Positions 2,577 through 23,518 of a DNA stretch of 46,035 bases are shown in pieces. Numbering within the stretch: position 1 is the first letter of the stretch; each line of letters opens with the position of its first letter. Below the pieces are notes generated by a model that was given only the letters and a program-made list of their open reading frames with translations, did no database searches and had not been told where the DNA came from. The translations under genes were made by a program, and so were the position numbers. The stretch comes from Thermotogaceae bacterium (lineage in GTDB: Bacteria; Thermotogota; Thermotogae; MWEM01). Where the stretch lies: assembly GCA_012744415.1 (NCBI GenBank), contig JAAYCF010000065.1, positions 1 to 46,035 on the forward strand, written 5' to 3'.

Positions 2577-2583
2577 GTGAGCC

Positions 2584-3396: not shown

Positions 3397-3408
3397 GGAG
3401 GGTTACGT

Positions 3409-4665
3409 ATGAGGAAATTAATGCTTATTTTAATGGTCCTTCTCGTATTCTGCACCTTAGGTCTCTCAAAAACGAAAATCACCTTTTGGTACGCCATCAG
3501 CGGCACGAGCGGTGAAGCGCTTAAGACGCTGATTGACCGCTTCCAAACCGAAAACCCGACCATCGAAGTGGAAGCCGTCTACTCCGGCAAGTACGCTGAC
3601 ACGGCCCAGAAGATAACGGCCGCTCTGGCTGCCAACGCGCTCCCAAATGGCGGGGTTATTCCTGCCGGGCCGATTTTTACGGGGCCGCGTGGTAACTATG
3701 CTATTCTCGACTATATGTTGAAAGATCCGACCTTTGACATGTCCGATTTTTATGACGGGATGTGGGATTACGCCAAGTATAAAGGAAAAATATGCGCGGT
3801 TCCATACAACATCAGCACTCCCGTTCTTTACTACAATAAAGAATTGATGGAAAAAGCGGGACTCGATCCCACGAAACCGCCTTCTACCTGGGAAGAACTT
3901 CTCGACTACGCTAAAAAAATCACCCAAGACACCAACGGAGACGGCACCCCTGACGTCTGGGGACTCAATATGGCCGATACCGCCTGGATTTTCAAATCTT
4001 TCCTCTTGCAGAATGAGAACGATATCGTCAAAGCGATCCCCAAGAATGAAGACTACGACATCGTCCCGCTCTTCGACCAAGCTTCTGCCTTAGAAACGGC
4101 GGAATACTGGAAAACGCTGATCGACGAGAACGCGATGCCCGTGGGTCTGCACTCCCTGGCGGAAAAGCAATTTCTTGGCAATACGCTCGGGTTCTATCTC
4201 GGTACCTCTTCCCGAATCGGAACGTGGACGGGCAATACGGCTTTCGATTTCGGTGTAGGGTTCCTGCCGAAAGGCAAACGGCTTGGGATTCCGATCGGCG
4301 GAGCCGTTCTCGTTCTCTTCCCCGCTTCGAAAGACCAGATGGACGCGACCTATCAATTGATCAAGTGGCTTACCCAACCCGACAAAATCGCGGAATTCGC
4401 CATGAAAACCGGATACATTCCGATCCGTAAATCTTCGTTGGACCTTCCGGAAATGAAAGCCTTTTTTGAAACGAAACCTTTCTATAAAACCGCTTTTGAA
4501 CAATCTGAATACGCTTTTTCCTACTGGCACTTCGATGCGATGGGAACCATGGACTCCTTGATCGTGGAAGTGTTGGAAAAGATTGAACGGGGCGTCTCAA
4601 CTACCAAAGAAGGCATGAAATGGCTCCAAGAGACGACCGTTGAAGAGATCGAAGCGAGTATGTAG
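3409..4665 (+). CDS. ABC transporter extracellular solute-binding protein (family 1, carbohydrate-type)
   Basis: Signal-like N-terminus 'MRKLMLILMVLLVFCTLG' and family-1 SBP blocks ('KITFWYA', 'YYNKELMEKAGLDPTKPPSTWEELL'). RBS AAGGAGGG lies 6 nt upstream of the ATG. Confidence 0.85.
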   Translation: MRKLMLILMVLLVFCTLGLSKTKITFWYAISGTSGEALKTLIDRFQTENPTIEVEAVYSGKYADTAQKITAALAANALPNGGVIPAGPIFTGPRGNYAILDYMLKDPTFDMSDFYDGMWDYAKYKGKICAVPYNISTPVLYYNKELMEKAGLDPTKPPSTWEELLDYAKKITQDTNGDGTPDVWGLNMADTAWIFKSFLLQNENDIVKAIPKNEDYDIVPLFDQASALETAEYWKTLIDENAMPVGLHSLAEKQFLGNTLGFYLGTSSRIGTWTGNTAFDFGVGFLPKGKRLGIPIGGAVLVLFPASKDQMDATYQLIKWLTQPDKIAEFAMKTGYIPIRKSSLDLPEMKAFFETKPFYKTAFEQSEYAFSYWHFDAMGTMDSLIVEVLEKIERGVSTTKEGMKWLQETTVEEIEASM

Positions 4666-4668
4666 CCG

Positions 4669-5463
4669 ATGCGGATCTCCTTCTCGACGGCCGGGCTGTA
4701 TCCCATCGAATCGATCGAGGCCCTGAAACTGGTTTCGCAGAGCGGTTTTTCTGAAGCGGAACTGATGCCTCAGTGCTATCATGAGATCACCGAATCTTTC
4801 GCCATCAAGGCTCGAAAAAACCTAAAAGAGATGGGGACGCCTTTACGTGTTTCCTCAATCCACTTTCCGTTGGTTTTTTTCTCCACCTTCTACAATATGT
4901 ACCCTGGTATGAGGAAAGAGGCCGAGCGTCTTTCCGAAAAAGTGGCGACTTGCGCTTCCATTTTCGGGACGGAAGTCATTGTCGTCCATGCGCCGGACAA
5001 ACCCAAACCGGGAGACTTGTCGGAGTACAGCGAAACGGTTATCCATAACATCCGTTACCTCTGCTGGGTCTGTGAGGAGATGGGGATCACTGTCGCTTTG
5101 GAGAATAACCCCAAAACGATCGCTGATACCCCCCCGCACTGGCGTGAAGCCGCGGCCTTGATCGATTGTCCAAACCTAAAACCGATGCTCGACACAACCG
5201 AAGCCTCAGAGGCCGGCATACAACCGATCGCGTTTGTAGATGAGGCGCCGTGCGCGCACTACCATCTGAGCGATCATTCGGGAGTTGTCAAACATCTTTT
5301 ACCGGGAGAAGGAGACCAGGATTGGCCTTTGTTCTTCGAAAAGAACGCGAAGAACGGTTACCGGGGCATCTATGTGGCGGAACCTTCTTATCGATTCGTG
5401 AGTGGGAATCCGATCGAAAACCTGGCAAAAGTCAGACGGTTTTTCGATCCGTATTTGTACTGA
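4669..5463 (+). CDS. Sugar-phosphate isomerase/epimerase, xylose-isomerase-like TIM barrel
   Basis: 'VIVVHAP', 'VALENNP' and 'HYHLSDH' are spaced as in AP-endonuclease-2/xylose-isomerase-like TIM barrels. 3-nt gap after the SBP gene. Confidence 0.65.
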   Translation: MRISFSTAGLYPIESIEALKLVSQSGFSEAELMPQCYHEITESFAIKARKNLKEMGTPLRVSSIHFPLVFFSTFYNMYPGMRKEAERLSEKVATCASIFGTEVIVVHAPDKPKPGDLSEYSETVIHNIRYLCWVCEEMGITVALENNPKTIADTPPHWREAAALIDCPNLKPMLDTTEASEAGIQPIAFVDEAPCAHYHLSDHSGVVKHLLPGEGDQDWPLFFEKNAKNGYRGIYVAEPSYRFVSGNPIENLAKVRRFFDPYLY

Positions 5464-5471
5464 GGAAGCCT

Positions 5472-6458
5472 ATGAAGGTTGGGCTTTTAGCCAATCAAGG
5501 CGCCGGCAGATACCGGCTCGTACCCGAAGCCGTTCGACGCTACCGAGAGGCCTTTCCGGAGCATGCGCTATATGCTCCGGAAGGGCGTTTTTCTCCCGGC
5601 GCGCTGGTCGGAGTCTCTTCTATCATATCCGGGGCATCAAATTCGAAAAGTTATCTGGAAGCGTTGTCAGATGCCGTTTCTTTGCTCGTTCAGGAGCGTT
5701 GCGACCGTCTCGTCGCCTTCGGCGGGGACGGGTTCTTTACCAATATTTGCGCCGCACTCATCGCCGAAGCGAGACCGATTCCCTTCATGGGTATCGGGAC
5801 AGGGACGGCCAACGTGGGTGTCCTCACCCAGTTTTCTCCGGAAGACCTCACGAGCGGACTTCCGATCGATCAAACCGATCAAATCTCTCCCTTGGCAATC
5901 TACAGAGACGGTCAGGCAATCGGATACGCCTTTCACGATATCGTCATCGGCGATACCTTTTTAGGGACATTTGACGGGGCAACACGCAATTTAAGCGCCG
6001 AAAAGTGGATGACCGACCGCGCGCTGTTGCCTGAAAAACCAAAGCCGCTTTCTTTTACCCAAGACTTTCGTATCTGCCGGTGCGCGGAACCACTCCCGTT
6101 GAAGTTATCTCCGATCGCTCAAATAATCATATCCCCGATCTATCGGGGGATCGGGTTCTCCGGAAAAGCGATCACGGGATTACTCTGTTTCAGTCCCTAT
6201 TACCCGGGTTGTTTCTGCATGGTATTGGCCGATCGCATATTGGTGGAGATGTCGTCTGCCTTTCCAGACTATGGGTGCGAGATCGAACAATACCTTTTCC
6301 AAAAAGGGGAGTCGTTGATCATGGAAGGCCTTTCGCCCGGTCACTTCATCATAGCGGACGGGAATCCTTTGTGCGAGGCGACTGGGTCCGTAAGGATCTC
6401 GCGGTCGGAAAAGCGCGTTCCGATCATCGTGAACCTCCTGCGATCACAGCGCTTCTAA
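5472..6458 (+). CDS. NAD-kinase / diacylglycerol-kinase-fold (GGDG motif) protein, substrate unknown
   Basis: ATG 5472 has GAGGAAG just upstream; the listed 5250..6458 ORF is an upstream run-on overlapping the previous gene. 'RLVAFGGDGFF' and 'GIGTGTANVGVL' resemble the GGDG and glycine-rich motifs of the NAD kinase/DAGK/AcoX fold. Confidence 0.45.
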   Translation: MKVGLLANQGAGRYRLVPEAVRRYREAFPEHALYAPEGRFSPGALVGVSSIISGASNSKSYLEALSDAVSLLVQERCDRLVAFGGDGFFTNICAALIAEARPIPFMGIGTGTANVGVLTQFSPEDLTSGLPIDQTDQISPLAIYRDGQAIGYAFHDIVIGDTFLGTFDGATRNLSAEKWMTDRALLPEKPKPLSFTQDFRICRCAEPLPLKLSPIAQIIISPIYRGIGFSGKAITGLLCFSPYYPGCFCMVLADRILVEMSSAFPDYGCEIEQYLFQKGESLIMEGLSPGHFIIADGNPLCEATGSVRISRSEKRVPIIVNLLRSQRF

Positions 6459-6482
6459 ATTTGAGAAGAAGGGGGTTAACTT

Positions 6483-7487
6483 ATGGCAAAAGAACTGTTT
6501 ATCCGCGCGCTCGAGGCTTTCGCCATCGGGGATGCCGTCGGTCTTCCCACGGAATTTATGACGCGTGACGAGATTCGCCGTGTTTATACTGAGATTGACG
6601 GATTGCCGAACCCGAAATTTTCGCGGTTCCACTCCGATCTGCCCGCGGGAAGCATATCGGATGATACGGAACAAAACCTTTTTCTCCTGGATGCTTTTCG
6701 AGAAAAAGGAATATCTACCGAAGCGACCGTCTATGCTTTGCTGAAATGGATAGAGGAGTCTCGGGCTGTCGAAAAGAAGTTTATCGGCCCGAGCTCGCTG
6801 AAGTCTTTACGAGCGATACAAAGTGGGGAATCTCCGCAAAAAGCGGGTTACGGAAACACGACGTGCGGTTCCGTGATGCGTGTTTTATCGGCTTCTTTGT
6901 GTACTCCCGCAAAGTCTTGGGACCAGCTGGCAACGCACATCTATTGGACGACTCTGCCGACGCATTTTTCGGAATCCGCGTTGGAAGCGGCGTTGGGCTT
7001 CGGGTTCGCCTTAAACGCCGCTGCAGAATCCACCTGTCTTGAAGAGATTATCTCCGCCTTTTTCGCAGGCGCCGCCAAGAGCAAGCAATACGGGGCGCCG
7101 GAATTTTCGATTCCCTCGACAGCGGCGCGCGTTCGCTTCTTTCTGGGTCACCAAAACCGGTTTTATGATCGCGATCAGATTGCCGAATATCTCTCGGATG
7201 TGCAGGGGACAGGACTTTATGCTAATGAAGTTTCACCTTCCGCTTTCATACTCTTCTTAACTTCCCCGAATGATTGCTGGGACAACATCCGATTAGCCGC
7301 CACGTTAGGCGGCGACACGGATACGATTGCGGCGCTCGCCGGCGCCCTGACCGCGCTATACAATAAAGGGCATAATATTCCCGGTCCTGTTGTGGATCGG
7401 GTTCTTTCTATCAACCGCCTCCACTTGGAGAAGTACGGGGAGATCATTTCAGCGTTACGTGCATCGAAAGCGACTTTTAGGGTATAA
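6483..7487 (+). CDS. ADP-ribosylglycohydrolase-family protein (DraG/ARH3/YegU-like)
   Basis: 'AFAIGDAVGLPTEF', 'ISDDTEQ' and 'TLGGDTDTIAALAGAL' are the metal-binding signature segments of this family. Confidence 0.8.
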   Translation: MAKELFIRALEAFAIGDAVGLPTEFMTRDEIRRVYTEIDGLPNPKFSRFHSDLPAGSISDDTEQNLFLLDAFREKGISTEATVYALLKWIEESRAVEKKFIGPSSLKSLRAIQSGESPQKAGYGNTTCGSVMRVLSASLCTPAKSWDQLATHIYWTTLPTHFSESALEAALGFGFALNAAAESTCLEEIISAFFAGAAKSKQYGAPEFSIPSTAARVRFFLGHQNRFYDRDQIAEYLSDVQGTGLYANEVSPSAFILFLTSPNDCWDNIRLAATLGGDTDTIAALAGALTALYNKGHNIPGPVVDRVLSINRLHLEKYGEIISALRASKATFRV

Positions 7488-7653
7488 TATCCGAAAGTTG
7501 GAAAGCGATGTCGAGCGGTTCGTCTTATAGAGCCGGACTGAAGTGGAATACCCGATGCTTACGGAAAGCGTCGCCTCTGTCGAGCACCGTCGCAGCTTAG
7601 CATAATGATCGTATTGAGGCGACAGATAGACTACTTTGATTGGAGCGTTCAAT

Positions 7654-9027
7654 ATGGACCCTACCGCAAGAGCCCGATTGTTAGGAGAGGGGAAGATTCT
7701 CTCTCTGATTTGGAAATTCAGCGTACCCGCCATCGTCGGGATGTTGACAAATGCGCTATACAATGTGGTGGATCGCATATTTTTAGGACGCGGCGTCGGA
7801 TCACTGGCGCTCGCGGGAATTACTGTCTGTTTTCCTATCATGACGGTCATGATGGCGCTCTCAATGCTCATCGGAGTCGGTTCCGCCACCCTTATCTCTA
7901 TCCGCTTGGGAGAAGGGAAAAAAGAGGAAGCCGAAAGGCTTATAGGTCAAGCCTTCTTTTTTGTCGTTGTCATTTTTAGTCTTTTCACGGTCATCGGACT
8001 CCTTCTGATCGATAAACTGCTCTTCCTCTTTGGCGCTACCGAAACGATTCTACCCTACGCGAAAGAGTATATGTCGGTTATCCTGCTGGGATCGACGATC
8101 TTTGCCGCAGGGATGGGCATGAATTATTGTATCCGGGCGGAAGGAAATCCGCGCGTCGCGATGGCCACGATGCTGATCGGCGGCATCCTGAACATCATCC
8201 TCGATCCGATCTTCATCTATTTATTTGGTTTGGGTATACGCGGCGCGGCGATCGCCACCGTGATCTCTCAAACCGTATCCGCGTTATGGGTGCTTAGGTA
8301 CTTCACCAGCGGAAAAAGCGTTATCACGCTGAAATGGCGAAATCTTCGGATGGACTGGACATTGGCTAAGGGAATGTTTTCAAACGGTTCGGCTTCTTTC
8401 TCGCTTCAGCTTGTCGCCAGCATGATGAACGTTATATTGAACCAAAGCTTGAAGAATTACGGCGGGGATTTGTCCATCAGCGCGATGGGGATTATCCAAA
8501 GCATCTTTACGTTTGTACTGATGCCCATATTTGGATTAAATCACGGTCTGCAGCCGATTTTTGGATATAATTACGGTGCGAAAAAGATCGATCGGGTATT
8601 TTTAACGTTAAAATACGGGTATCTCTTTGCCACCATTCTGTGCACCGCGAGTTTTTTGGCGTTGCGGTTTTTTTCGATCCCGATCATACAGGTCTTCAAC
8701 CGCAGCGATCCGGCATTGCTTGAACTGACCGTTCACGCGATCTTCTACTATTCGCTGATGATTCCGGTTATCGGCGTACAGGTCGTTTCTGTCGGTTTTT
8801 TCCAAGCCCTCGGGAAACCAAAAAGCGCGATGTTTCTGAGTCTTAGCCGACAGATCCTTTTCCTGATACCGCTACTGCTCATCCTGCCTCGCTTCTTCGG
8901 ACTAGACGGCATTTGGTATAGCGTCCCCATCTGCGATACCTTGTCCTTCGTCGTGGCTGCGTTTTTCGTAACCCGAGAGATAAGAAAACTGCGGGTTCTA
9001 ACGCACCAGCCAAAGGAGATCGGATAG
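7654..9027 (+). CDS. MATE-family efflux transporter
   Basis: 12-TM profile with MatE block 'VPAIVGMLTNALYNVVDRIFLGRGVG' and an internal duplication. ATG 7654 has GGAG 8 nt upstream; TTG 7636 is the alternative start. Confidence 0.85.
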   Translation: MDPTARARLLGEGKILSLIWKFSVPAIVGMLTNALYNVVDRIFLGRGVGSLALAGITVCFPIMTVMMALSMLIGVGSATLISIRLGEGKKEEAERLIGQAFFFVVVIFSLFTVIGLLLIDKLLFLFGATETILPYAKEYMSVILLGSTIFAAGMGMNYCIRAEGNPRVAMATMLIGGILNIILDPIFIYLFGLGIRGAAIATVISQTVSALWVLRYFTSGKSVITLKWRNLRMDWTLAKGMFSNGSASFSLQLVASMMNVILNQSLKNYGGDLSISAMGIIQSIFTFVLMPIFGLNHGLQPIFGYNYGAKKIDRVFLTLKYGYLFATILCTASFLALRFFSIPIIQVFNRSDPALLELTVHAIFYYSLMIPVIGVQVVSVGFFQALGKPKSAMFLSLSRQILFLIPLLLILPRFFGLDGIWYSVPICDTLSFVVAAFFVTREIRKLRVLTHQPKEIG

Positions 9028-9098
9028 TAAACACAAGCGAGTAAACATCCTCTTAAGCTGGTTGGCAAAGTGAGCTGTCGGGCTTGGAGCTATGCTCG

Positions 9099-10826
9099 CT
9101 ACACCCACCGCTGGGTGATCGGAAGCCCTTGTTCTCCGTTGAAGCTTACCTTCGTCAGTTTCGGGCCGATGGGATTCACGTGACGCTTAAATTCGCTGCG
9201 GATGTACAATTCACAGACTTTGTGGACGCTTTCCTCGCGGAATCCTTCTTTGATAATCTCATCGGCGGAATACCGTTCCTCGACTAACAGACGAACGATC
9301 GGGTCCACCTCTTCATAGGGCGGCAAGCGGTCCTGATCGGTTTGACCGGGATACAGCTCGGCCGTCGGTGCTTTATTGAAAACGCTTTCCGTGATCACCT
9401 GAGTACCCAGCAGTTTGTTCAGCGTCTTTCCCAGCGCGTAAACCTGGTATTTGTACAAATCCTTTATAGGGGCAAATCCCCCGGCGGAGTCGCCGAAAAG
9501 CGTGCTATACCCGCATGCAGACTCGCTTTTATTGCCGGTCGTCAAGACGAGCCATCCATAACGGTTCGATAAGGCCAGTAGGGTGTTCGCCCGAATCCGA
9601 GGCTGCAGGTTTTGCTCGCACAAGTCTCCCGTGTTTATTTCGAACTCAGCCTCGAATAGCTGTCGATAGCTCTCCAAAACGTCTCCGATCGGAAGCGTCA
9701 GGGTTTTAATCTGAAGGGCGTCGGCTAGATCTTGCGCATCTTTGATACTGGTGTCGGAAGTATACCCCGTAGGCATTAAAACGCCGATTACCCGCTCACG
9801 TCCTAAGGCCGAAACAGATAGCGCCGCGACGACCGCCGAGTCAATGCCTCCGCTTAAACCCAAGACCACTTTTTCGAAACGGTTTTTCCCAACGTAATCG
9901 CGCAGCGAAAGCTGCAAGGCCGAACAGATCGCGGCGGATTCGTCCTCCGGATAATCAAAGATTTTGGAATTGATCTCCGGTTTAAAGGAAGCGGAGAAGT
10001 CGCAATCGATTCGATTGACGGGCCATTCCTGAAAACGGAGTCCGCACCGAATCGCCCCTGTCTCCGTTTTTCTTCCGCGTAGGGGCAATTCGATGTCTGC
10101 GACGACGAAATCTTCCTCCAGCATCTTCCCGCGCGCTTTAATCCGGCTGCGCCCGTCGAAGATCATGCTGTTGCCGGTGAAGATCCATTGATCCTGACCG
10201 CCGATCGCGTTCGCGTGGACGATGCCCATCTCGAAGTCCTTCGAGCGGCTGAACAACCGTTGCTCCGTTTCGGTGTATTCACCCGCCAAAAAAGAAAACG
10301 CGGAAAGATGGAAAAGAATACAAACGCCGTATCGATCGTAAGTGGAAAGCAGATCATATCGATCCCACAGATCGTTGCCAATGACGACGCCCGCTTTGAT
10401 CCCCTCTATATTGAGTAAAATCCCTTCATCACCGGATGAGAAAAACCCCGTATCGACCCCGTCGTTTTCGGGGCATATCGCGATTTTTCGATAAGAACCC
10501 AGCCACTTTCCGTTTTGTATGAATCCGGCGCTGTTGTAATATCGGTTCTCTTCGGCATCCAAAAACCCGAAGACGATTAAGGGCTGTTTTCCTTTCGAGA
10601 ACTGGATGATCTCGTCGATGCTCCGGCGCGTTTCTTTCAGGAAGGCTCGATTTTTCGATAGTTCCTGACAGTTTAATCCATTTAAGCATAGTTCTGGAAA
10701 GATCAGAGCATCCGCCCCGATCTCATGTCCCAGCGCGATCCCTTGTTCAAGATTCTTCGCGTTATCCTTTAAGGCGCCCGTGATGGTATTCAGCTGACTC
10801 ACCGCAACTCTCAACGTTTTTTTCAT
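9099..10826 (-). CDS. nadE: Glutamine-dependent NAD+ synthetase
   Basis: N-terminal CN-hydrolase (glutaminase) domain plus C-terminal NAD synthetase domain with PP-loop 'VLGLSGGIDSAVVAAL'. 575 aa. Confidence 0.9.
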   Translation of the reverse strand: MKKTLRVAVSQLNTITGALKDNAKNLEQGIALGHEIGADALIFPELCLNGLNCQELSKNRAFLKETRRSIDEIIQFSKGKQPLIVFGFLDAEENRYYNSAGFIQNGKWLGSYRKIAICPENDGVDTGFFSSGDEGILLNIEGIKAGVVIGNDLWDRYDLLSTYDRYGVCILFHLSAFSFLAGEYTETEQRLFSRSKDFEMGIVHANAIGGQDQWIFTGNSMIFDGRSRIKARGKMLEEDFVVADIELPLRGRKTETGAIRCGLRFQEWPVNRIDCDFSASFKPEINSKIFDYPEDESAAICSALQLSLRDYVGKNRFEKVVLGLSGGIDSAVVAALSVSALGRERVIGVLMPTGYTSDTSIKDAQDLADALQIKTLTLPIGDVLESYRQLFEAEFEINTGDLCEQNLQPRIRANTLLALSNRYGWLVLTTGNKSESACGYSTLFGDSAGGFAPIKDLYKYQVYALGKTLNKLLGTQVITESVFNKAPTAELYPGQTDQDRLPPYEEVDPIVRLLVEERYSADEIIKEGFREESVHKVCELYIRSEFKRHVNPIGPKLTKVSFNGEQGLPITQRWV

Positions 10827-10855
10827 AGCGTCCTCCTATCGCACGATGTTTGCGT

Positions 10856-11674
10856 TCACGACCCCTTGGAAAACCAGTCGATAATCTCCGCTCTAAACCG
10901 TTCTCCGTGCTCGGGGTCGTAGAAGGTTTCGTGGTAAGCCCCCTCGAAGGTTTTAAAGGCTTTCTCAGGACTCGGGACATGTTCGTAAAAGCGATTCGCG
11001 GCTTGTGGAATCACGATACGGTCGGCTGATCCAGTCACGAACAGCGCCGGCAGTTTCACTTTATCCGATTCGGAAAAAGCCTGTTGGATCTCCCGGTAGA
11101 TGCTGTAACCCAGCGCGAGGGAGATCTGGTCGTGTACCAGAGGGTCACGGGTATAGGCATCCACAATCGACCGATTACGAGAGAGCAGTTCGGGCGCGAG
11201 TCCGTTCTTAACGGTCAAAAAGGGCATCAATTTTGCCAGCCACGCCATCGTCTTGATCCGTTTCTCCTGTTCAGTTGGTAATCCGAGGAGAGGCGCGGAG
11301 ATCGCCGCGCGGTTAAAGAGTGTCGGGTTTTTTTGAATCGCCCGAATCGCCACCAATCCACCCAGACTGTGCCCAAACAAACCGGTAGAAACCCCGGGGT
11401 TTTCTTTCTGAGCCATAGAGACGACCTGTTCGATAACGGCGACCATTTCCTGCACCGTCGCGTGTCCCCGTTTTCCATTATTAACGCCATGCCCCGGCAG
11501 ATCAGCGGTATAGACGCTAAACCCCGCGCGATTCATTTCCCCGAAAAACTCCGTGTATCGTCCGGCGTGTTCCCCAAGACCGTGAACGACCACGATAATC
11601 CCTTTAGGTGAAGGGATTGGATAGGCGAATCCTTTAATATCGCCTTTTCGAGAGACCAGGTCAAATGTTTTCAT
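10856..11674 (-). CDS. Alpha/beta hydrolase (monoacylglycerol-lipase / lysophospholipase-like)
   Basis: 'VVVHGLGEHAGRY' and nucleophile elbow 'GHSLGG'. 14-nt overlap with the upstream membrane-protein gene. Confidence 0.8.
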   Translation of the reverse strand: MKTFDLVSRKGDIKGFAYPIPSPKGIIVVVHGLGEHAGRYTEFFGEMNRAGFSVYTADLPGHGVNNGKRGHATVQEMVAVIEQVVSMAQKENPGVSTGLFGHSLGGLVAIRAIQKNPTLFNRAAISAPLLGLPTEQEKRIKTMAWLAKLMPFLTVKNGLAPELLSRNRSIVDAYTRDPLVHDQISLALGYSIYREIQQAFSESDKVKLPALFVTGSADRIVIPQAANRFYEHVPSPEKAFKTFEGAYHETFYDPEHGERFRAEIIDWFSKGS

Positions 11675-15031: not shown

Positions 15032-17215
15032 CTATTCCCGGTGGTATTTCAATCGCAGCGAGTTCAGGATGACCGTGATGGAGCTTAAGGCCATCGCGAT
15101 CTCTCCGATGGCCGGGTGCAGAATCCCGAGCATCGCCGCCGGAATCGCGATCACGTTGTATAAGAACGCCCAGATCAGGTTTTGTTTGATGATTCGAAAA
15201 GCCAATCGCGAAATTTTCAGGCTTTCGACCACTTGGGGAATGCCTCCGCGAACGATGACGATATCGGCGCTGTCAATCGCAAGGTCCGTTCCCGAACCCA
15301 TAGCGATGCCGATATCGGCGGCTTTTAGTGCCGGCCCATCGTTGAGTCCGTCTCCCACCATCAGGACTTTTCCTTTACCGCGATGATGTTCGTGGATTAA
15401 AGCCAGTTTTTCGGATGGTTTCATCTGGCTTTTAAAATCGCTGATTCCAGTTTCCTTGCTGACACGTTTGGCAGCTTCGAAATGGTCGCCCGTCGCAAGA
15501 ATGACGGTTAACCCCATCGCGCGCAACGCGGCAATTCCGGGTATCGTATCCTCTCTCAGGGGATCCGCAACGGCAAAAGCGCCCTGTATTTCCTCATCCA
15601 AACGCGCTTCGACGATCGAATATCCTTTTTCTGTCCACGAGTGGTAGATATCGTACTGGATCGGCTTCCCCACGAATAAAACTTGATTTTCCCATCTACC
15701 CGAGATCCCCTCTCCGGGGGTTTCTTGGACATCCTCAATATCCGCCGGGTTCACTGATCCGTTTCCCTTCGCGAATTCCACCAGCGCCTTAGCCAACGGG
15801 TGAGCCGACTGGGTTTCGAGTCCTGCTATCGCTGGCAAGAGGGTATCCGGGACGGTGGTTTCAATTACGGTCGGTTTTCCGAGCGTCAACGTGCCGGTTT
15901 TGTCAGTAATGACTGTCCTGATCTCGCCCGCCGTTTGGATTGCCTCTCCGTTTCGAATGATCAAGCCTTTTTTCGCCGATAGGGATGAAGCCCCAATCAA
16001 CGCCATAGGGATCGCTAATCCCAGTGCGCACGGGCAAGCGATCACCAGCGTGGCGACGAAGACGAAGAGGCTATGGGATAGCGCGTCCGCATGGGCGTTG
16101 ACCCAAGGGATAATCTTTCCTAACGATTCAAGCGCGGGCTGTAAGCTTTCAAACCCGAAAAACCATATCAACGCGGCCGAAAGCGCTAAGAGGAGCACGG
16201 TCGGAACAAACCATAAGGTGATCCGGTCCGCAAGCGCCTGGATAGGCACTTTCGTTCCCTGCGCTTCTTGGATCATGGATATAAGCTGGGAAAGGAACAG
16301 GTCTTCTCCCACTTCGGTCACCCGCACCGTTAACGGCGCGTTCAGGTTAAGAGATCCCCCCGTCACGCGAGAACCAGTTTGTTTTTTCAAAGGCATAGAC
16401 TCGCCGGTGATCATCGATTCGTCTACCGACGAAGTCCCCTCCGCCACTTCCCCGTCCAACGGGATCCGTTCGGAAGGCAAAACCTGTATCACACTATCTA
16501 TTTTAACCGCGACGATCGGAATCAAGACCCACCCTTCACTAGTTCTAACCCGCGCTTCTTTCGCCTGTAACTGCAGCAATGCTTTGACATCTTTGGCCGC
16601 GCGGTCGCGCAACCACGATTCGATATATCTCCCCGTGAGGTGGATGGCTACGATCATCGCGCCGATACTGCCGAAAGAGGCGATTTTCAACCCCAAGAGC
16701 GCCAGCAGCGTCGTTGAAAAGGCGGTGACCGATCCCAAAAAAATAAGGGTGTCCATATTAAAATGCGCGTGTATCAGCGCGATCCAAGCGCCTTTGATCG
16801 TATGACGGCCGGTATAGAAGATGACGAAAGCGGCCATCAGCGGTTCAAGATATCTGAATATCGGAAGATGATACCCGGACATGTGAAGCAGCATCCATAC
16901 CATCAGCGGAAAAGTTGCCATCCACGAGAGGAATAGATTTCTACCTGCTTCTTGGTACCGTTTTTTCGCGGCGTCCGGGGTTACCGATTCGGCGATTTCG
17001 TATCCAACCTCAGACACGGCTTTCTTTAGCCTGTCGAAATTGATCTCTTGTTCGGAAAGCGCAAAGCCAGATTCCGTCGCAAGGTTGACGGATACAAAAT
17101 AAACGCCTTCCACTTTTTTAATCGCGCGCTCTACATGCTTGACGCACGTGACACACGTCATTCCTTTCACGTAAAAGCTCTGTTTGTACGAGGCTTTATC
17201 CGGACGGTGTTCCAT
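15032..17215 (-). CDS. copA: Copper-translocating P1B-type ATPase
   Basis: HMA domain 'GMTCVTCVKHV', membrane 'ACPCALGLA' (CPC), phosphorylation site 'DKTGTLT', hinge 'GDGLNDGPAL'. RBS AGGAGA 5-6 nt upstream. Confidence 0.9.
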   Translation of the reverse strand: MEHRPDKASYKQSFYVKGMTCVTCVKHVERAIKKVEGVYFVSVNLATESGFALSEQEINFDRLKKAVSEVGYEIAESVTPDAAKKRYQEAGRNLFLSWMATFPLMVWMLLHMSGYHLPIFRYLEPLMAAFVIFYTGRHTIKGAWIALIHAHFNMDTLIFLGSVTAFSTTLLALLGLKIASFGSIGAMIVAIHLTGRYIESWLRDRAAKDVKALLQLQAKEARVRTSEGWVLIPIVAVKIDSVIQVLPSERIPLDGEVAEGTSSVDESMITGESMPLKKQTGSRVTGGSLNLNAPLTVRVTEVGEDLFLSQLISMIQEAQGTKVPIQALADRITLWFVPTVLLLALSAALIWFFGFESLQPALESLGKIIPWVNAHADALSHSLFVFVATLVIACPCALGLAIPMALIGASSLSAKKGLIIRNGEAIQTAGEIRTVITDKTGTLTLGKPTVIETTVPDTLLPAIAGLETQSAHPLAKALVEFAKGNGSVNPADIEDVQETPGEGISGRWENQVLFVGKPIQYDIYHSWTEKGYSIVEARLDEEIQGAFAVADPLREDTIPGIAALRAMGLTVILATGDHFEAAKRVSKETGISDFKSQMKPSEKLALIHEHHRGKGKVLMVGDGLNDGPALKAADIGIAMGSGTDLAIDSADIVIVRGGIPQVVESLKISRLAFRIIKQNLIWAFLYNVIAIPAAMLGILHPAIGEIAMALSSITVILNSLRLKYHRE

Positions 17216-17252
17216 ATCCGCTCTCCTTTCTTCAATTCAAATGGCGAAAACT

Positions 17253-20200
17253 TTATCTTTCGACGTGAAAGGGCAAGAAAAAATTGTAGCGGTCGGTTTC
17301 TTGGGGGCTGAGACCGATCCATTTCGGAAAGTATTTAAAGAGGAACGGCTCCGCCGAAGAAGTGAACCCGATGATTTGAAACTGATGGGTATACAGCATC
17401 CGCATCGGGATCTCAAGTAGCGTTTCCGTATTGATGTGTCCGAACAGGTGGTCGAGGACCAAGATCGACGAGGTGTTGGAACGCGGGGCATATCCCTTCC
17501 ACCAAGAGAAAAGCGAAGCGTAGAGCATAAGGTAAATCGCCATTTTTTCTCCGGTAGACCACTTCTCAACGTCCTTCCAGGCATACTTTTCATCCATCGC
17601 CCTGATAAAGGGAGGTTTGCTGATGCGTATTTCCAACCGTTGATCAAAATAGAACTCCCATAAGGTTCTCAACGGCCACCGCAGAAGAACGTCCTGCCGC
17701 TCAGACCCTTGCCGATCGAGGGTATCGGCAATACGATTTGCGAAGCGCTCGAGGTCATCTTCGCGCGCGCGTCTCGGAAAAGAAAATTCGAGCAGCGTGG
17801 TATCTTCCGGACCCGGGCGGGAGAAACGCGCGATATCCCGCAGGTGCGCATTCACGATTTCCATCACGGAACCGATCTCTTTTGAAAAACGCGACAAGGC
17901 CGTCTGCGTTCTTCTCTCTTCCGATTGCTCATCGCTAATTTTTTTCCTGAGCCCGTTCAACAGGTGCGTGACAACTTTGTTCCCGCCTTCGAGCCCATCC
18001 TCTTCCGAAGCGTCGAAAACGGGTTCTTCCCAATTTTCCGCGGGATCGAGCGTTTTTTTCAACTCCACCCATTCGTTATCCAACACCTGCCTTTGCCGTT
18101 CGACCGCGTACAAGTGCTTTCGGTATTCCGCTTCCTTCTCTTCCCAAAGGTTATCAAGATCGTTTTTCAAAAAAATTCGGGCTAAACCTGGGATGTATTT
18201 TTTATCCCCATCATCGCAATCGGACAACGTGATTTGCTGTCGCCGCGCGAGGGATCCCAGCCTTCGCAGGGCATTTTCTTTTTCGGCGATCGATCGCGTT
18301 GTTTCTTCCCGGCTCTCTTCTATCTCTCGTATTCTTCTTTCCAAGGTTTCCGCGGACTCCACGCCCTCGGAAACCCGCTCATCCTCGAAATCCCCTGCGC
18401 CGTCCGCAGATGGGGACAGTATCGGGTCAAGCTCGGGCAACGCCCTCTTTCTGGCGCAAAGGGTCGCTCGTTCGTCAAAAAGATTCGGCAACTTGCTCTC
18501 CTTGTTTCTGATCTCCGCGATGATCTCCCAAAGAAGTCCCGGGTGCGCCTCAAATACCGACGGATCAGTTTGCGGTTCCCGCGCGACCAGGGAAAGCAAA
18601 GGATTCTTCAACTCCTCGAGAGCGTCTTCCATCTCTCGATCCGTATCCTGAACTTGCGTCTCCCATTCCGAGAGTCGTTTCTGAATCGATAGGCAAAAGA
18701 GCGAAAAGTCTTTTAATGGCACTCCACACACTTGTTCGATTTCGAAGGAAAGCAACGACCACTCTCGTTCTTCTTTCTCAAGCGCTTCTATCTTTTGCCG
18801 TAGAATTCGTTCTTCTTCGCCCAAAGAGTGGGAAAGCGCCACCGACGCTTGGATTTTTTCCCTGACGTCGTCCAGGCTTTTCGAAACCAGCCGGAAGCCT
18901 TTTTCGAGGAAGGCGCGTTTTTCACGGCACCTTTCATCGGCTGTCTCCGGGTCCGGACCCAGCGTTTGCGAGAAGATCGCCAGACGTTCCAATTGGTCTT
19001 CGGTTTTCTTCAACGCCGCGACGAGGCTATCTTTCCGATCGCGAAAAACGACACGACGGGTTTGCAGCCATTGTGTCAGATCTTCACGATACCCGCGGGT
19101 ATTCTCTTCCGAGGCGGGGCGCCCGGGATTAAGGCGAAGCTGGAGGGCATGTTCGGTTAGAGAAGGAACCCACCGCAGCTTCAGTCGCATCATCGTGCGA
19201 TATTCGCTCGCTTCGACGAGGGTTTCCGCTTCCCTGACAGATAAAACCGGTATTGGAAGCGTTGGAAAATCTTCAAGGGGTAAACAGGAAAGCGCCTGAT
19301 CCATCTCCAAAGGATATTCGGTAATCAGCGCAAAGGTCAAAAAAGGATTGCGACTCTTCCCGCTTTTGATCCAATCCGAGCCTGTTTCGAATCCTAAAAA
19401 GCCGTTTCGCGCGAGGACTGAAGCCAGCTTCTCAACTTCTTCGGGAGTACGCGAGCCGATCGAATCGGCCTGACTCGTCTCCAACTGATCGATGCGTTCG
19501 ATCTCCCGGCTGGCCTCGTATATTTGGATATGCAAACGATTACGTTTCTCATCCAACCTCTCTTTTATGAAAGGAAGCGGGCGGTTCCCGTCTAAAGATT
19601 TCAGCAATTCGACAAAATCCTGGTAAGCACGGATTTGTTCCCCGCGCGGATCTTCTTCGGCAAGCTTTGATTTCAAGCTTTCCCGATCGCCTTCATATCC
19701 CTCCAGCTTTTGACGGAGCTTCCTTCTTACCGCTTTTTGAATCGCTTGCCGCCTTTGATTCCGTTCCAGCGCGCTGATCGCCCTCTCTTTCTCGTACCCG
19801 GTCTTTTGGTAGCCAGGCATCTCACCAAGCCTTTTGTAGCGTTCCTGAAGACTGGAGCAGCGCTGCAGAATCGAAAGAGTCTCCCAAGAAGACTGTAAAA
19901 TCGTTTCCCGACGTATCTGACCGGATTTGACCGTCTCCAGAAGCGTCTCCAAGTGGTGCTTCGTCATCAGCGCCCAAGAGACCGACGCGTTACTTTGCAT
20001 CTGTGACATTGCCGAGGTAGATTCGCCGGAAGGTTTTTCATCCGCTTCGGCAGCCATACGGCGTCGTAGGGTTTCGTATAAAAGCGCTATTTTTTGTTGT
20101 TTTTCTTCGATTTCTCCGGATAACGCAGCTTCAGTTTTCTCCAACTCCGCTTTTTCGAGAGCGCGTTCTCGATGGACCCGAAGCCAGTTCTTTCGACGAC

Positions 20201-21113
20201 AGTCCGCTTGCGCTTCATCCAAACCGCAGAGTTGTTCCTCCATCCGTTGAATGTCGGTATGCGCTTTTTGTATCTCTTTATGGGTGTATGCCTGTATCGT
20301 CCGAAGGGAACAAACCGCGTCACGTAGATCTTCTTTCGCTTCATGATAGGCGCGTAGCAGAGTCATACGGGACTGAAGCCGATCCTTTAAGGCGACATCG
20401 AGATCGACGCCCCTGTTCGGCTTCCACATTCTTCTATGCGAAAAAAAAGTGGAGATCCTTTCTCTCAGATCGGTTCCTTCAATTTTCAGGCGTTTTTCGA
20501 TCAAAGGGAAAACCATCGGATCAAGGATTTTGTCGGAGGTATTGCCCAATACCTCCTGCAAAGGCAACATGCCTTCCAAAAACTGGTTGAAAGAGAGAAT
20601 CAGACACCATTCTTCCGATCCTAAACCAAATTCGCCCAATTGTTGTTCGTAAGCGGTCAAATCTTCTCGCCGGAAGGCGTTGAATCGATCTCCGTACAAC
20701 GATCTCATGAGCAGCGGCAGCTCTTCGTAATCCAATACTGACTCTCCTCGCCGAATCGGAAGGCGTTCGATATCGAAAAGTCCTTCGAGTCGAAGAATCC
20801 AGTTGAAGTATGTCCGATCCGCTTTCTTGCGGGTGCTGAAACCCAACAAAACCGTTTCGTCCTCGACCGAGAACGCGGCGAGGATATGGGAGGTCCCGGT
20901 GCATTTCGAGAACAAATCATCCACGGTTCTTGGCTGCAGGAAGGCGCCGGGAAGGATCGTCTGAAAAAAACACGAAAGCAAATAGGTTTTCCCCGCTCCG
21001 TTTGGCATCAAAATGAGCGTATTACGCCCGCCAAAGTCGAGTGTCAGATCGGGGATGACGTAAGACTCTCCGTAAGCGAGATTCAGCACGCGAAACCCTT
21101 TCAGTTCAGGCAT
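17253..21113 (-). CDS. MukB/MksB/JetC-like SMC-family ATPase (1286 aa) with atypical Walker B
   Basis: The N-terminal head 'FRVLNLAYGES...TLILMPNGAGKTYLLSCFFQTILPG' parallels MukB 'FRSLTLINWNG...[24 protein letters not shown]'. It is followed by a long heptad-rich coiled coil, a globular hinge at about residues 560-690, and a second coiled coil. The C-terminal head 'WSTGEKMAIYLMLYASLFSWW...SILVLDHLFGHIN...FQIIGFTS' parallels MukB 'LSTGEAIG...QSW...[11 protein letters not shown]...LQLIIAAPE'. Confidence 0.75.
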   Translation of the reverse strand: MPELKGFRVLNLAYGESYVIPDLTLDFGGRNTLILMPNGAGKTYLLSCFFQTILPGAFLQPRTVDDLFSKCTGTSHILAAFSVEDETVLLGFSTRKKADRTYFNWILRLEGLFDIERLPIRRGESVLDYEELPLLMRSLYGDRFNAFRREDLTAYEQQLGEFGLGSEEWCLILSFNQFLEGMLPLQEVLGNTSDKILDPMVFPLIEKRLKIEGTDLRERISTFFSHRRMWKPNRGVDLDVALKDRLQSRMTLLRAYHEAKEDLRDAVCSLRTIQAYTHKEIQKAHTDIQRMEEQLCGLDEAQADCRRKNWLRVHRERALEKAELEKTEAALSGEIEEKQQKIALLYETLRRRMAAEADEKPSGESTSAMSQMQSNASVSWALMTKHHLETLLETVKSGQIRRETILQSSWETLSILQRCSSLQERYKRLGEMPGYQKTGYEKERAISALERNQRRQAIQKAVRRKLRQKLEGYEGDRESLKSKLAEEDPRGEQIRAYQDFVELLKSLDGNRPLPFIKERLDEKRNRLHIQIYEASREIERIDQLETSQADSIGSRTPEEVEKLASVLARNGFLGFETGSDWIKSGKSRNPFLTFALITEYPLEMDQALSCLPLEDFPTLPIPVLSVREAETLVEASEYRTMMRLKLRWVPSLTEHALQLRLNPGRPASEENTRGYREDLTQWLQTRRVVFRDRKDSLVAALKKTEDQLERLAIFSQTLGPDPETADERCREKRAFLEKGFRLVSKSLDDVREKIQASVALSHSLGEEERILRQKIEALEKEEREWSLLSFEIEQVCGVPLKDFSLFCLSIQKRLSEWETQVQDTDREMEDALEELKNPLLSLVAREPQTDPSVFEAHPGLLWEIIAEIRNKESKLPNLFDERATLCARKRALPELDPILSPSADGAGDFEDERVSEGVESAETLERRIREIEESREETTRSIAEKENALRRLGSLARRQQITLSDCDDGDKKYIPGLARIFLKNDLDNLWEEKEAEYRKHLYAVERQRQVLDNEWVELKKTLDPAENWEEPVFDASEEDGLEGGNKVVTHLLNGLRKKISDEQSEERRTQTALSRFSKEIGSVMEIVNAHLRDIARFSRPGPEDTTLLEFSFPRRAREDDLERFANRIADTLDRQGSERQDVLLRWPLRTLWEFYFDQRLEIRISKPPFIRAMDEKYAWKDVEKWSTGEKMAIYLMLYASLFSWWKGYAPRSNTSSILVLDHLFGHINTETLLEIPMRMLYTHQFQIIGFTSSAEPFLFKYFPKWIGLSPQETDRYNFFLPFHVER

Positions 21114-21921
21114 CTCCAGCCTCTTTGATACCTAAATCAACCCAAGCGTCTTCTTCTTTCCACATACCGTATACGGCGCGGGCTTTTGCCGTCGGAACGA
21201 TCGTTCGCTGCTTCTCAAAGTACGTGACTAACCCTTGCTCATTCAGAACTTGAACGGCTTTGACGATCAACCCAACCTGCGAATCGCTCTTATAACTGGT
21301 CCAGTCGCCGGGTCGGATAAATCCTTCCGAAAGTCCTTCCCAATCGGAAATCCAGCGTTCCGGGACGGCGCCGCTTTCCTTTCTTGGCGATGGGTCGGCC
21401 CAACGCAATTTGGCCCCCGCGACCAGCTTCCGGATGCGCTCGAGTATCTCGGACAAGACCACATACTCCGCGTTCTCCTCGAAAAACATAAGGAAGAGGA
21501 TAGCGGTGAGGACCTCGAATAGCTGCCATCGTTTTGAGGGGAAGGGGATTTGCTTAAAAAAATCGACTTTTTTCATCGTGAAAGGACTTTCTTCCGCGCA
21601 AAAAAAATAGATCGCTTCCGCGTCTTCCCGTATCAATAGCCGGGCTTCTTCCGCAAAAACGCGGACCAAGTCGCGAATTTCGATACTTTCGAAGTAAAGG
21701 GCGTAGAGTCGAGGATCATCTTGAAAGGTGATCGTTCCCGTCGCCAAGGCGCGGGCGATCATCTTGAATACCCATCGCATTTGTTCACGGAGGGAGGCTT
21801 CCACCCTTTCACCTTCCCTAACGATACATAGGAAATCTTTATTGCAATTATACAGGTCTATTTCCGGGTTGTCAATGAAGGGTGTGTTATAATCGGCAAA
21901 GTAGACGAAAGCGCCCGTCAT
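21106..21921 (-). CDS. Acidic 271-aa partner of the SMC-like ATPase; possibly MukE/MksE/JetB-like (DUF4194-like), unverified
   Basis: Its stop overlaps the ATG of the 1286-aa gene (ATGCCTGA, 8 nt), and AAGAGG lies 6 nt before that ATG. Segments 'DLVRVFAEEARLLIREDAEAIYFF' and 'VVLSEILERIRKL...GLIVKAVQVLNEQGLVTYFEKQ' recall tandem winged-helix MksE/JetB proteins. No Shine-Dalgarno precedes ATG 21921, so the start is uncertain. Confidence 0.55.
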   Translation of the reverse strand: MTGAFVYFADYNTPFIDNPEIDLYNCNKDFLCIVREGERVEASLREQMRWVFKMIARALATGTITFQDDPRLYALYFESIEIRDLVRVFAEEARLLIREDAEAIYFFCAEESPFTMKKVDFFKQIPFPSKRWQLFEVLTAILFLMFFEENAEYVVLSEILERIRKLVAGAKLRWADPSPRKESGAVPERWISDWEGLSEGFIRPGDWTSYKSDSQVGLIVKAVQVLNEQGLVTYFEKQRTIVPTAKARAVYGMWKEEDAWVDLGIKEAGDA

Positions 21922-21954
21922 TGGGTCCGATAAGCCTGCAAAGAGATAGAAGGA

Positions 21955-22416
21955 GTGAGGAAGATCGAAGATATATTCCGAAGGTTAAAATTTCGAAGTT
22001 CGGGTCATGCCTTGGTGTGGAACACACCCGAAGAGTTTCGTATCCGTTTAAACCGCTTGCGGGAGATCGTGCCGGTCCACGAAGCTGTGATCGAAAACAT
22101 CCGATACGGTTTCTTTCTTCTGTTTGTGAAGGGGCAGGAGGACATACGTCTAAGTCTCCCATTCCTTTCGGAAAACCTCGAACCAGACGGGATCCTTTGG
22201 TTCGCCTACCCCAAAAAATCTTCGAAGAAGTACGATAGCCGCTTGAGCCGAGAGGTTGGATGGGACGCGATCCGCCAACTGGGTTACGAACCGGTACGCC
22301 AAGTTGCCATCGACCAAGACTGGTCTGCTTTGCGCTTTCGAGAAGAGCGGTATATCCGCCTGCTCTTGCGAAATAGAAATAATGAGCCGTCCGGCGGCCA
22401 TTCGGATAAGCTTTGA
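21955..22416 (+). CDS. Small conserved-looking hypothetical protein (153 aa)
   Basis: GTG 21955. The C-terminal block 'ILWFAYPKKSSKKYDSRLSREVGWDAIRQLGYEPVRQVAIDQDWSALRF' resembles a DUF3052-like pattern, from recollection only. The antisense 191-aa ORF over the same DNA is R/G/P-rich and is rejected. Confidence 0.5.
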   Translation: MRKIEDIFRRLKFRSSGHALVWNTPEEFRIRLNRLREIVPVHEAVIENIRYGFFLLFVKGQEDIRLSLPFLSENLEPDGILWFAYPKKSSKKYDSRLSREVGWDAIRQLGYEPVRQVAIDQDWSALRFREERYIRLLLRNRNNEPSGGHSDKL

Positions 22417-23518
22417 GCGCAGGACGACCGTGAAGGAGCAAACGTTCGAGTCCATCCGTCATAAAGGGTATGATATCCGGTTTCGCAGCAAACCGAATTT
22501 TGACAGGCTTTATGTTGAACTATCCACCGCCTGCAATTTTTCTTGCGAGATGTGTTTTTCCTCCGGACAGGAAAGAAAGAGCGGGACGATGATCGCGGCG
22601 CAGACAATAACGCGGTTGGCAGATGAGCTCTCCGGGTATCCGGATAGACCTGAGATCGTTTTCGCGGGGATCGGGGAACCGCTGCTTCATCCTGACTGGA
22701 GGGCCTTTCTTCTCCGATTTAAGGAGATCCCTGCAAAAGTAGGCCTTCACACCAACGGAGCGCTGTTGGACGAAGAAGCCCTGACCTTTCTGGTCGACGC
22801 GCAAACCGATCATTTGTGTCTATCGGTCGATCCGGAGGGATTTGGCCATGAGAGCGCCGAAAAATCGCTGGAAACCTTGGAAATGCTCCATGCGATCAAG
22901 AAGCGAAAAGGTAGCCTGCTTCCCTTGGTATCGATTCAATCGGTCCTCTGCTCGAAGAACATCGGAGGGAGCGACGCCTTCGGAAGGCGGATCGAATCTC
23001 TGGGGGTTTCCGAATGGATCCTTTCGAACCTCGTGCCGATGAATGCTGAGCAAGCGAAAACCGCGCTTTATCCGATGAGCCCTATCAGTTTGGCCACGCC
23101 ACTCGGATTGTCTTTTGCTTCCCGCTTTCCTTTCGCGCGGGTCCCCTCTTTTCGGCTGATCGGAGAACGTGGCTGTCCGTTTATTGACAAAAACAGTCTT
23201 GTTGTCGGCGCAGACGGTCGAATAACGCTATGCTACCCCTTTCTTCGATCGCATGAGACATACCCGTTCGGGAAAAAACATCCTGTCGCCGCCTACGCCT
23301 TTGGGCATTTTCCAGACGAAAGGCTCCTGTCTGTCTGGCAAAAAACTGATGTGTCCAGCTTTCGGGCAAAAGTTCGCCTCGGGCTCTTTCCCTACTGTTT
23401 TGAGTGCGAATGGATCGATACCTGCGAACTGATTACCCGCGGATCAACGGATTGCCACGGCAATATGCCTTCTTGCGCCGATTGTTTATGGTATCATCGA
23501 TTAGTCATGTGCTTCTAA
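22382..23518 (+). CDS. Radical SAM enzyme with Cys-rich SPASM/twitch-like C-terminal domain
   Basis: 'LSTACNFSCEMCF' gives the CxxxCxxC cluster motif, and 'FAGIGEPLLHP' the SAM-binding GGE-like block. The C-terminus 'CYPF...CFECEWIDTCELITRGSTDCHGNMPSCADCLWYHRLVMCF' is Cys-rich. The start is ATG 22382 (35-nt overlap with the upstream gene) or GTG 22430. Confidence 0.75.
   Translation: MSRPAAIRISFERRTTVKEQTFESIRHKGYDIRFRSKPNFDRLYVELSTACNFSCEMCFSSGQERKSGTMIAAQTITRLADELSGYPDRPEIVFAGIGEPLLHPDWRAFLLRFKEIPAKVGLHTNGALLDEEALTFLVDAQTDHLCLSVDPEGFGHESAEKSLETLEMLHAIKKRKGSLLPLVSIQSVLCSKNIGGSDAFGRRIESLGVSEWILSNLVPMNAEQAKTALYPMSPISLATPLGLSFASRFPFARVPSFRLIGERGCPFIDKNSLVVGADGRITLCYPFLRSHETYPFGKKHPVAAYAFGHFPDERLLSVWQKTDVSSFRAKVRLGLFPYCFECEWIDTCELITRGSTDCHGNMPSCADCLWYHRLVMCF

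Follow-up and report, generated by a model that had tools for sequence, protein, structure and literature searches.

Wadjet operons fall into three types, and suppression of plasmid transformation requires all four subunits, the kleisin JetA, the kleisin-interacting tandem winged-helix element (KITE) protein JetB, the structural maintenance of chromosomes (SMC) ATPase JetC, and the Toprim nuclease JetD (PMC10586767). With an E-to-Q substitution in the type I JetC, JetC(EQ), complexes still form, but ATP hydrolysis and DNA cleavage are abolished (bioRxiv 10.1101/2022.10.04.510915). Lamassu LmuB carries a natural Walker-B E-to-Q change, turns over about 1 ATP per minute in the presence of DNA, and is viewed as a one-way sensor (PMC10586767; bioRxiv 10.1101/2025.03.14.643221). 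Here, we analyzed 46,035 nucleotides from a Thermotogaceae bacterium (GenBank assembly GCA_012744415.1, contig JAAYCF010000065.1, positions 1 to 46,035; hereafter the window), in which a first-pass annotation had pointed out a His (His1222) at the place of the Walker-B catalytic Glu in an SMC-like head. We found that the corresponding gene is the second of a jetB–jetC pair (21804–17253, minus strand), which appears to be a reduced type III Wadjet operon, and we consider it rather probable that the pair acts as an ATP-gated, slowly hydrolyzing DNA clamp or sensor.

The locus resembles type III Wadjet in the homology of its products to JetB3 (DUF6063) and JetC3, in the overlap of jetB and jetC, in a Walker-B Asp that is not followed by Glu, and in the lack of a D-loop Asp. 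It differs in that the pair is accompanied by neither the JetA kleisin nor the JetD nuclease, and the jetC-like protein is 100 to 200 amino acids shorter. Moreover, the head reads DH-L-F-G instead of DN-P-F-G and WSTGE instead of WSGGE and has no His 10 residues past the Walker-B Asp, while the pair resides in a syntenic housekeeping neighborhood and not in a mobile island. With MukB and the type I JetC (MksB), which to our knowledge never act without a kleisin (MukF or JetA), the protein shares the head fold and the order of motifs, including an S-T-G-E signature as in MukB. In contrast, the Asp is followed by Glu in those proteins, and hydrolysis is lost in their E-to-Q mutants (10.1101/2022.10.04.510915). 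LmuB is similar in being a natural SMC-family immune ATPase without the catalytic Glu, which functions as a very slow, DNA-stimulated one-way switch (PMC10586767; 10.1101/2025.03.14.643221); however, it has Gln in place of His or Asn, short coiled coils, and the partner effectors LmuA and LmuC, and we saw no effector here. Since the PADLOC LmuB model matched only the coiled-coil region (E 0.62), the resemblance to LmuB is functional, in the natural loss of the catalytic Glu, and not familial.

The assignment to type III rests on both genes. Three PADLOC JetC3 models matched the jetC-like protein, albeit weakly (7e-8 to 1e-6), and the Pfam families SbcC_Walker_B and AAA_23 matched only below threshold, while the profile of the N-head matched the type II JetC 9qe0 (9e-6) and MukB (hhalign probability 93.6%). 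The product of the upstream, overlapping gene matched Pfam DUF6063 (3.3e-13; 49.9 bits vs a cut-off of 27) and PADLOC JetB3 (2.9e-11) and could be aligned with the JetB3 of relatives. The stop codon of the jetB-like gene overlaps the jetC-like ATG (ATGCCTGA), and the two genes are translationally coupled. Orthologues are present in both other genomes of the genus examined, "Thermotogae bacterium ADurb.Bin062" and an "uncultured Thermotogaceae" metagenome-assembled genome (MAG), and a more distant orthologue of the jetC-like gene lies on a JGI metagenome contig. In a maximum-likelihood tree of concatenated heads rooted with MukB, this clade nested with the JetC3 proteins of related Thermotogota (SH-like approximate likelihood ratio test support 98) on a branch of 2.58 substitutions per site. 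The nested position together with the long branch indicates that the jetC-like clade derives from within type III and has undergone accelerated change.

Rereading of the minus strand and translation of the open reading frame (ORF) confirmed all sequence statements of the first-pass annotation, including the P-loop coordinates. The codons are GTC (17459–17457), CTC (17456–17454), GAC (17453–17451), and CAC (17450–17448), the translation includes SSILVLDHLFGHINTET, and numbering from the ATG at 21113 yields D1221, H1222, H1226, and N1228. The motif register was tested with hhalign by comparing a 33-member profile of the family C-head with MukB, the SMC of the genus, and the SbcC of the genome. 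Against Escherichia coli MukB, STGE fell on SGGE and LLFLDE on VLiaDN of the family profile; against SMC, ilDE fell on iaDN and ivitH on IcfTa; and against SbcC, LDEGFGTLD aligned without gaps to LDHLFGHIN. Thus, in all three alignments, the catalytic Glu falls on H1222. The D-loop Asp is likewise missing from the jetC-like head: its position is taken by N1228 in the SbcC register, or by T1229 in the SMC register, which contains a one-residue gap. There is also no switch His in the H-loop, as FTSS lies opposite the ITH of SMC and position 1253 is Ser. This position is variable in the family (L 12, H 10, I 9), and MukB, as judged by hhalign, similarly has no His here.

The remaining motifs are preserved. 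Walker A (NGAGKT, residues 38–43) conforms to GxxGK[ST], and WSTGE (1185–1189) aligns with STGE of MukB and SGGE of SMC and SbcC. We modeled residues 1027–1286 with AlphaFold2 (predicted local distance difference test score 82.9; predicted template modeling score 0.72). The model contains a helix following the signature (1187–1208), a Walker B strand (SILVLD, 1216–1221) ending at D1221, a helix at 1230–1242, and a strand at 1245–1250. Its closest structures were E. coli JetC (8as8, Z 8.6) and MukB (7nyx, Z 8.5), followed by Rad50, SMC, cohesin, and RecF heads, so that all top matches in the Foldseek and VIA searches were heads of the SMC-family type. Because neither the 3-sequence nor the 33-sequence profile of the C-head retrieved an SMC-family chain from the PDB, the register was settled by hhalign and the fold search. 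Together, the translation, the alignments, and the model bear out the earlier view that the signature-like motif, the Walker B strand with its Asp, and the P-loop Lys-Thr are retained, and the three hhalign alignments and the strand at 1216–1221 agree with it in placing His1222 at the catalytic-Glu position.

We next asked how widespread these substitutions are. When 1.84 billion representatives were searched exhaustively with a hidden Markov model of the C-head, 52 proteins were recovered, four of which form the clade of the window, the others being proteins of 1390 to 1510 amino acids or fragments thereof; no more than three close relatives came out of a word-based search. All canonical JetC3 proteins examined (about 50 representatives) carry Asp-Asn, nearly always continued as P-F/V-G (DNPFG). 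Among 33 aligned full-length members, Asn occupies position 1222 in 32 and His in 1, position 1223 is P in 29 and L in 4, and position 1228 is S in 25, N in 6, and I in 2, while S1186, G1188, E1189, D1221, G1225, and Q1246 are invariant and T1251 is found in 31. This result is not circular, because the JetC3 proteins of three related genomes (G006, G016, and G055), fetched independently through their N-terminal part (JetC3 model match 3.9e-63), also read DNPFG. As judged from the alignments, loss of the Glu did not take place in this lineage, Asp-Asn being a trait of type III JetC as a class, and the D-loop Ser or Asn is likewise family-wide. The first-pass annotation had described a natural E-to-H plus D-to-N head; the residues do occupy those positions, but they are not local changes, as the JetC3 family already has Asn and Ser/Asn there. 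It had also suggested a check of the homologues for the canonical Asp-Glu, and none of them carries it. Our literature searches found no paper mentioning a Walker-B variant of type III JetC.

A family-wide lack of the Glu could also mean that JetC3 proteins, the clade of the window included, are normal hydrolyzing motors to which a carboxylate is supplied from elsewhere, for example, by E180 of the N-lobe or by a partner subunit. The N-lobe motif N-x-x-E-G-G of JetC3 fits such a role in that its Asn is invariant and 30 of the 32 members carry its Glu, which the clade has kept with a shift of one residue. However, hhalign of the N-lobe profile to SMC and SbcC covered the Walker A region only, and the alignment to MukB ended at residue 170, so E180 was not placed at the active site. 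We regard this explanation as improbable and favor a head in which the general base is missing.

The event that is specific to the clade appears, on the sequences at hand, to be an exchange of Asn and His at position 1222, with His being the commonest residue there but not an obligatory one. The codons are CAC (His) in the window, CAT (His) in two further lineages, and AAC (Asn) in ADurb.Bin062, and together with the preceding Asp codon, the three other lineages read GAT-CAT, GAC-CAT, and GAC-AAC. His1222 is no sequencing quirk, because orthologues in other lineages carry His through another codon, or Asn. Relative to the canonical JetC3, the clade further has Thr in place of Gly in the signature, Leu in place of Pro after position 1222, and Thr or Ser in place of His at +10. 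The His at +10 (position 1231) is found in 28 of 33 JetC3 proteins and lost in the clade. We considered whether it had relocated to +1 or +5; this idea is weak, as neither +1 nor +5 is His in the family members that carry Phe at +10.

These observations raise the question of whether His1222 is a working substitute for the general base, with which the clade would have regained an efficient, differently catalyzed hydrolysis that was lacking in its Asp-Asn ancestors. Acceptance of a proton is possible for His and impossible for Asn, the His has been kept in three lineages through a synonymous CAC/CAT change, and the alteration of three more near-invariant residues of the ATP site (G1187T, P1223L, and H1231T) suggests a remodeled site. 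Yet, the ADurb.Bin062 orthologue has Asn at 1222 within a nearly identical head and an intact gene, and His1222 is therefore dispensable. Parsimony, moreover, leaves the clade ancestor undecided between His and Asn, so it cannot tell whether His is ancestral. A substitute base is thus doubtful in our view, and slow hydrolysis is the reading that we carry forward.

Subsequently, we evaluated whether the remaining Wadjet subunits are encoded in the genus. JetA3 (model PDLC00558 and the JetA3 protein of a relative) had no match in any of three genomes of the genus (G000, G001, and G002), nor did the JetD3 model PDLC00592, and Pfam JetD_C (PF09983) had none in G000. No JetA-like or JetD-like gene was found in the neighborhood of the locus. 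In the positive controls G006 and G016, the JetA3 model matched at 1e-38 and the JetD3 model at about 1e-61. Gene order is permuted among the canonical type III operons of related Thermotogota: it is jetD-jetA-jetB-jetC in G006 (3539–10937), with JetB3 also matched, and jetC-jetD-jetA in G055 (2144–8346), while in G016, jetB adjoins jetC, and jetD and jetA lie on another contig. Given the order in G006, loss of the 5' half of the operon would leave exactly a jetB–jetC pair.

One could argue that the system is complete and that jetA and jetD sit on unassembled contigs or are too diverged for the models, as the MAGs consist of 200 to 418 contigs and the queries comprised one JetA3 model, one JetD3 model, Pfam JetD_C, and one JetA3 protein. 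This is very hard to reconcile with the same absence in three independent assemblies of the genus, with the matches that the JetA3 and JetD3 models do obtain in related genera, and with the contiguity of the four genes in the known type III loci examined. We consider such a complete system highly unlikely and a two-gene remnant of the operon the better description.

The loss of two subunits might instead indicate a decaying operon without a present function. Consistent with decay, JetA and JetD were not found in the three genomes, and the jetC-like protein sits on a long branch and evolves faster than its neighbors, with identities of 63 to 66% compared to 78 to 85% for CopA and the methyltransferase. 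However, the jetC-like ORF is intact in all lineages, down to an overall identity of 32%, and spans 1286 codons in several of them, and the C-head is still highly conserved. In assembly GCA_964566085.1 (CAZMHO010000002.1, about 9750–9760), an N-run shifts the frame, and the annotation splits the orthologue into genes of 336 and 949 amino acids; we rejected a pseudogene at this site, since this only apparent split is an assembly gap. The dN/dS ratio between the window and a 62%-identical orthologue was 0.17 overall, with values of 0.13 for the N-head and 0.15 for the C-head (0.13 to 0.18 across the heads and coiled coil), at a dS of about 1.5, which is near saturation. The promoter-like block is the same or almost the same in the other two genomes of the genus, while the sequence on either side of it diverges, and the jetB-like gene has an GAAGGTGA ribosome-binding site (RBS) and a GTG start at 21804 that are conserved across the three genomes, as is the translational coupling. 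We placed the start at GTG 21804 and not at ATG 21921 because the orthologues carry an in-frame stop just upstream, the RBS is conserved, and the promoter-like site would lie inside the longer ORF. By these comparative measures, the pair is intact and under purifying selection behind a conserved predicted consensus promoter, and decay has very little probability. What is new at the locus is the His variant together with a conserved, expressed-looking jetB–jetC pair that has neither jetA nor jetD.

According to the explanation we favor, the pair would descend vertically from a type III Wadjet operon and be reduced to two genes, one for a KITE protein of the JetB3 type and one for an SMC ATPase of the JetC3 type that has been shortened and has evolved fast, with the JetA kleisin and the JetD Toprim nuclease gone. 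The head has no general-base Glu, no D-loop Asp, and no switch His, while Walker A, the signature, and the Walker-B Asp are intact and constrained. Given the conservation of Walker A, S-x-G-E, and the Walker-B Asp and the purifying selection on them, the head most likely binds Mg-ATP and engages its partner head. Without a general base, hydrolysis would be slow, and without a kleisin or nuclease, the pair would be a long-lived ATP-gated DNA clamp or sensor and not a plasmid-cutting loop extruder. We infer ATP binding, slow hydrolysis, DNA clamping, and the biological role in this way; the earlier proposal of a switch or sensor rather than a loop extruder is plausible by analogy, with LmuB and JetC(EQ) as precedents.

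Several points weigh against this explanation. The hhalign probabilities were low (4 to 29%), because the templates were single sequences, although the three registers concur. Slow hydrolysis is extrapolated from E-to-Q mutants and LmuB, and His, unlike Asn, can serve as a general base. All three Wadjet types reportedly act against plasmids, in which case an Asp-Asn motor can support the ATP turnover that is needed, and another residue may be the base. The searched genomes of the genus are MAGs that are 90 to 93% complete. We know of no working precedent for an SMC protein without a kleisin, and a partner may therefore be encoded elsewhere. The features of the locus are listed in Table 1.

Table 1. 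Coordinates of the jetB–jetC pair and of the motifs encoded in it (window positions).
Feature	Position	Strand	Evidence
jetC3-like gene, 1286-aa MukB/JetC-type SMC ATPase	17253..21113	-	ORF, translation, PADLOC, profile, tree, dN/dS
jetB3-like (KITE, DUF6063) gene, about 232 aa	21106..21804	-	Pfam, PADLOC, orthologue comparison
Promoter-like site TTGACA-17 nt-TATAAT	21847..21875	-	Scan; 12/12 consensus matches; ~40 nt upstream of GTG 21804
Walker A / P-loop MPNGAGKT, M36-T43	20985..21008	-	Translation; N38, G39, G41, and K42 invariant in 32 family N-heads
N-lobe motif NQFLEG, N176-G181	20571..20588	-	Family consensus N-x-x-E-G-G; candidate alternative Mg/water ligand
Signature (C-loop) motif WSTGE, W1185-E1189	17547..17561	-	S, G, and E invariant (33/33)
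Walker B strand S1216-D1221 with H1222 (catalytic-Glu position)	17448..17468	-	AlphaFold2 strand, hhalign, family counts
D-loop region LFGHINTE, L1223-E1230; N1228 at the D-loop Asp position	17424..17447	-	Gapless SbcC alignment, family counts
H-loop-equivalent strand FQIIGFTSS, F1245-S1253, without the switch His	17355..17381	-	AlphaFold2 strand 1245-1250, alignment to QFIVITH of SMC

As also entered in the table, the Asn that had been noted at the D-loop Asp position was confirmed as N1228 in the SbcC register. Two other ORFs of the region are questionable. The 271-aa ORF from ATG 21921, which extends the jetB-like gene over 21805–21921 on the minus strand, probably has a mis-set start, and the 191-aa ORF at 21887–22462 (minus strand), whose translation is Arg-rich and of low complexity, is probably no gene. 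Rfam and tRNA scans of the window gave no matches. A complex prediction with the JetB-like protein and the two head halves scored 0.00, which is no answer, and was not used either way.

The pair is surrounded by ordinary genes. Upstream lie a divergently transcribed radical-SAM/SPASM gene, a PUA-methyltransferase gene, and a gene for an OadA-like carboxyltransferase. Downstream by 37 nt is copA (15032–17252, minus strand), which encodes a P-type Cu ATPase with an HMA domain; it follows the jetC-like stop at a distance of about 37 to 41 nt, with no terminator predicted in between. The copA gene directly follows the jetC-like stop in three of the four lineages (the window, L002, and L023), the distant JGI contig included. 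It is possibly co-transcribed from the jetB promoter, and a functional link is not evident. At the ADurb.Bin062 locus (MWEM01000001.1, 12041–17167), the upstream radical-SAM gene is missing, and about 6 kb of extra DNA separates the jetC-like gene from copA. This DNA, which looks like a small mobile or defense insertion, codes for a DDE transposase fragment, a YhgA-like transposase, an SNase-Ada_Zn nuclease-like protein, and an ATPase_2 + Mrr_cat protein.

The genome that the window comes from encodes a canonical SMC and SbcCD, and the jetB–jetC pair is therefore a replacement for neither. The SbcCD genes (contig C57, 3709–8691), with a 1232-aa SbcC that has a normal Walker B and D-loop (DEGFGTLD), provided a control from within the genome. 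To fetch type I and II JetC proteins, we searched the phylum with Pfam AAA_29; this was far too unspecific, and the SbcCD locus was its only useful yield. A new cellular role can also be imagined, in which the genus would have domesticated the JetB–JetC half into a constitutively expressed chromosomal SMC complex free of kleisin and nuclease, with His1222 as a replacement base that re-tunes turnover. We see only a slim chance of this and retain the slowly hydrolyzing clamp or sensor as our preferred explanation.

Models of Wadjet loop extrusion are based on type I complexes, in which E-to-Q mutants are dead. A Wadjet class with Asp-Asn and its Asp-His offshoot raise the question of how much ATP hydrolysis an SMC immune sensor needs, and an offshoot without kleisin or nuclease that of whether an SMC–KITE pair can act without a ring-closing subunit. 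The clade provides a natural allelic series, with His in three lineages and Asn in one on a nearly identical head, next to Asn across the canonical family, which would suit a comparison of ATPase activities.

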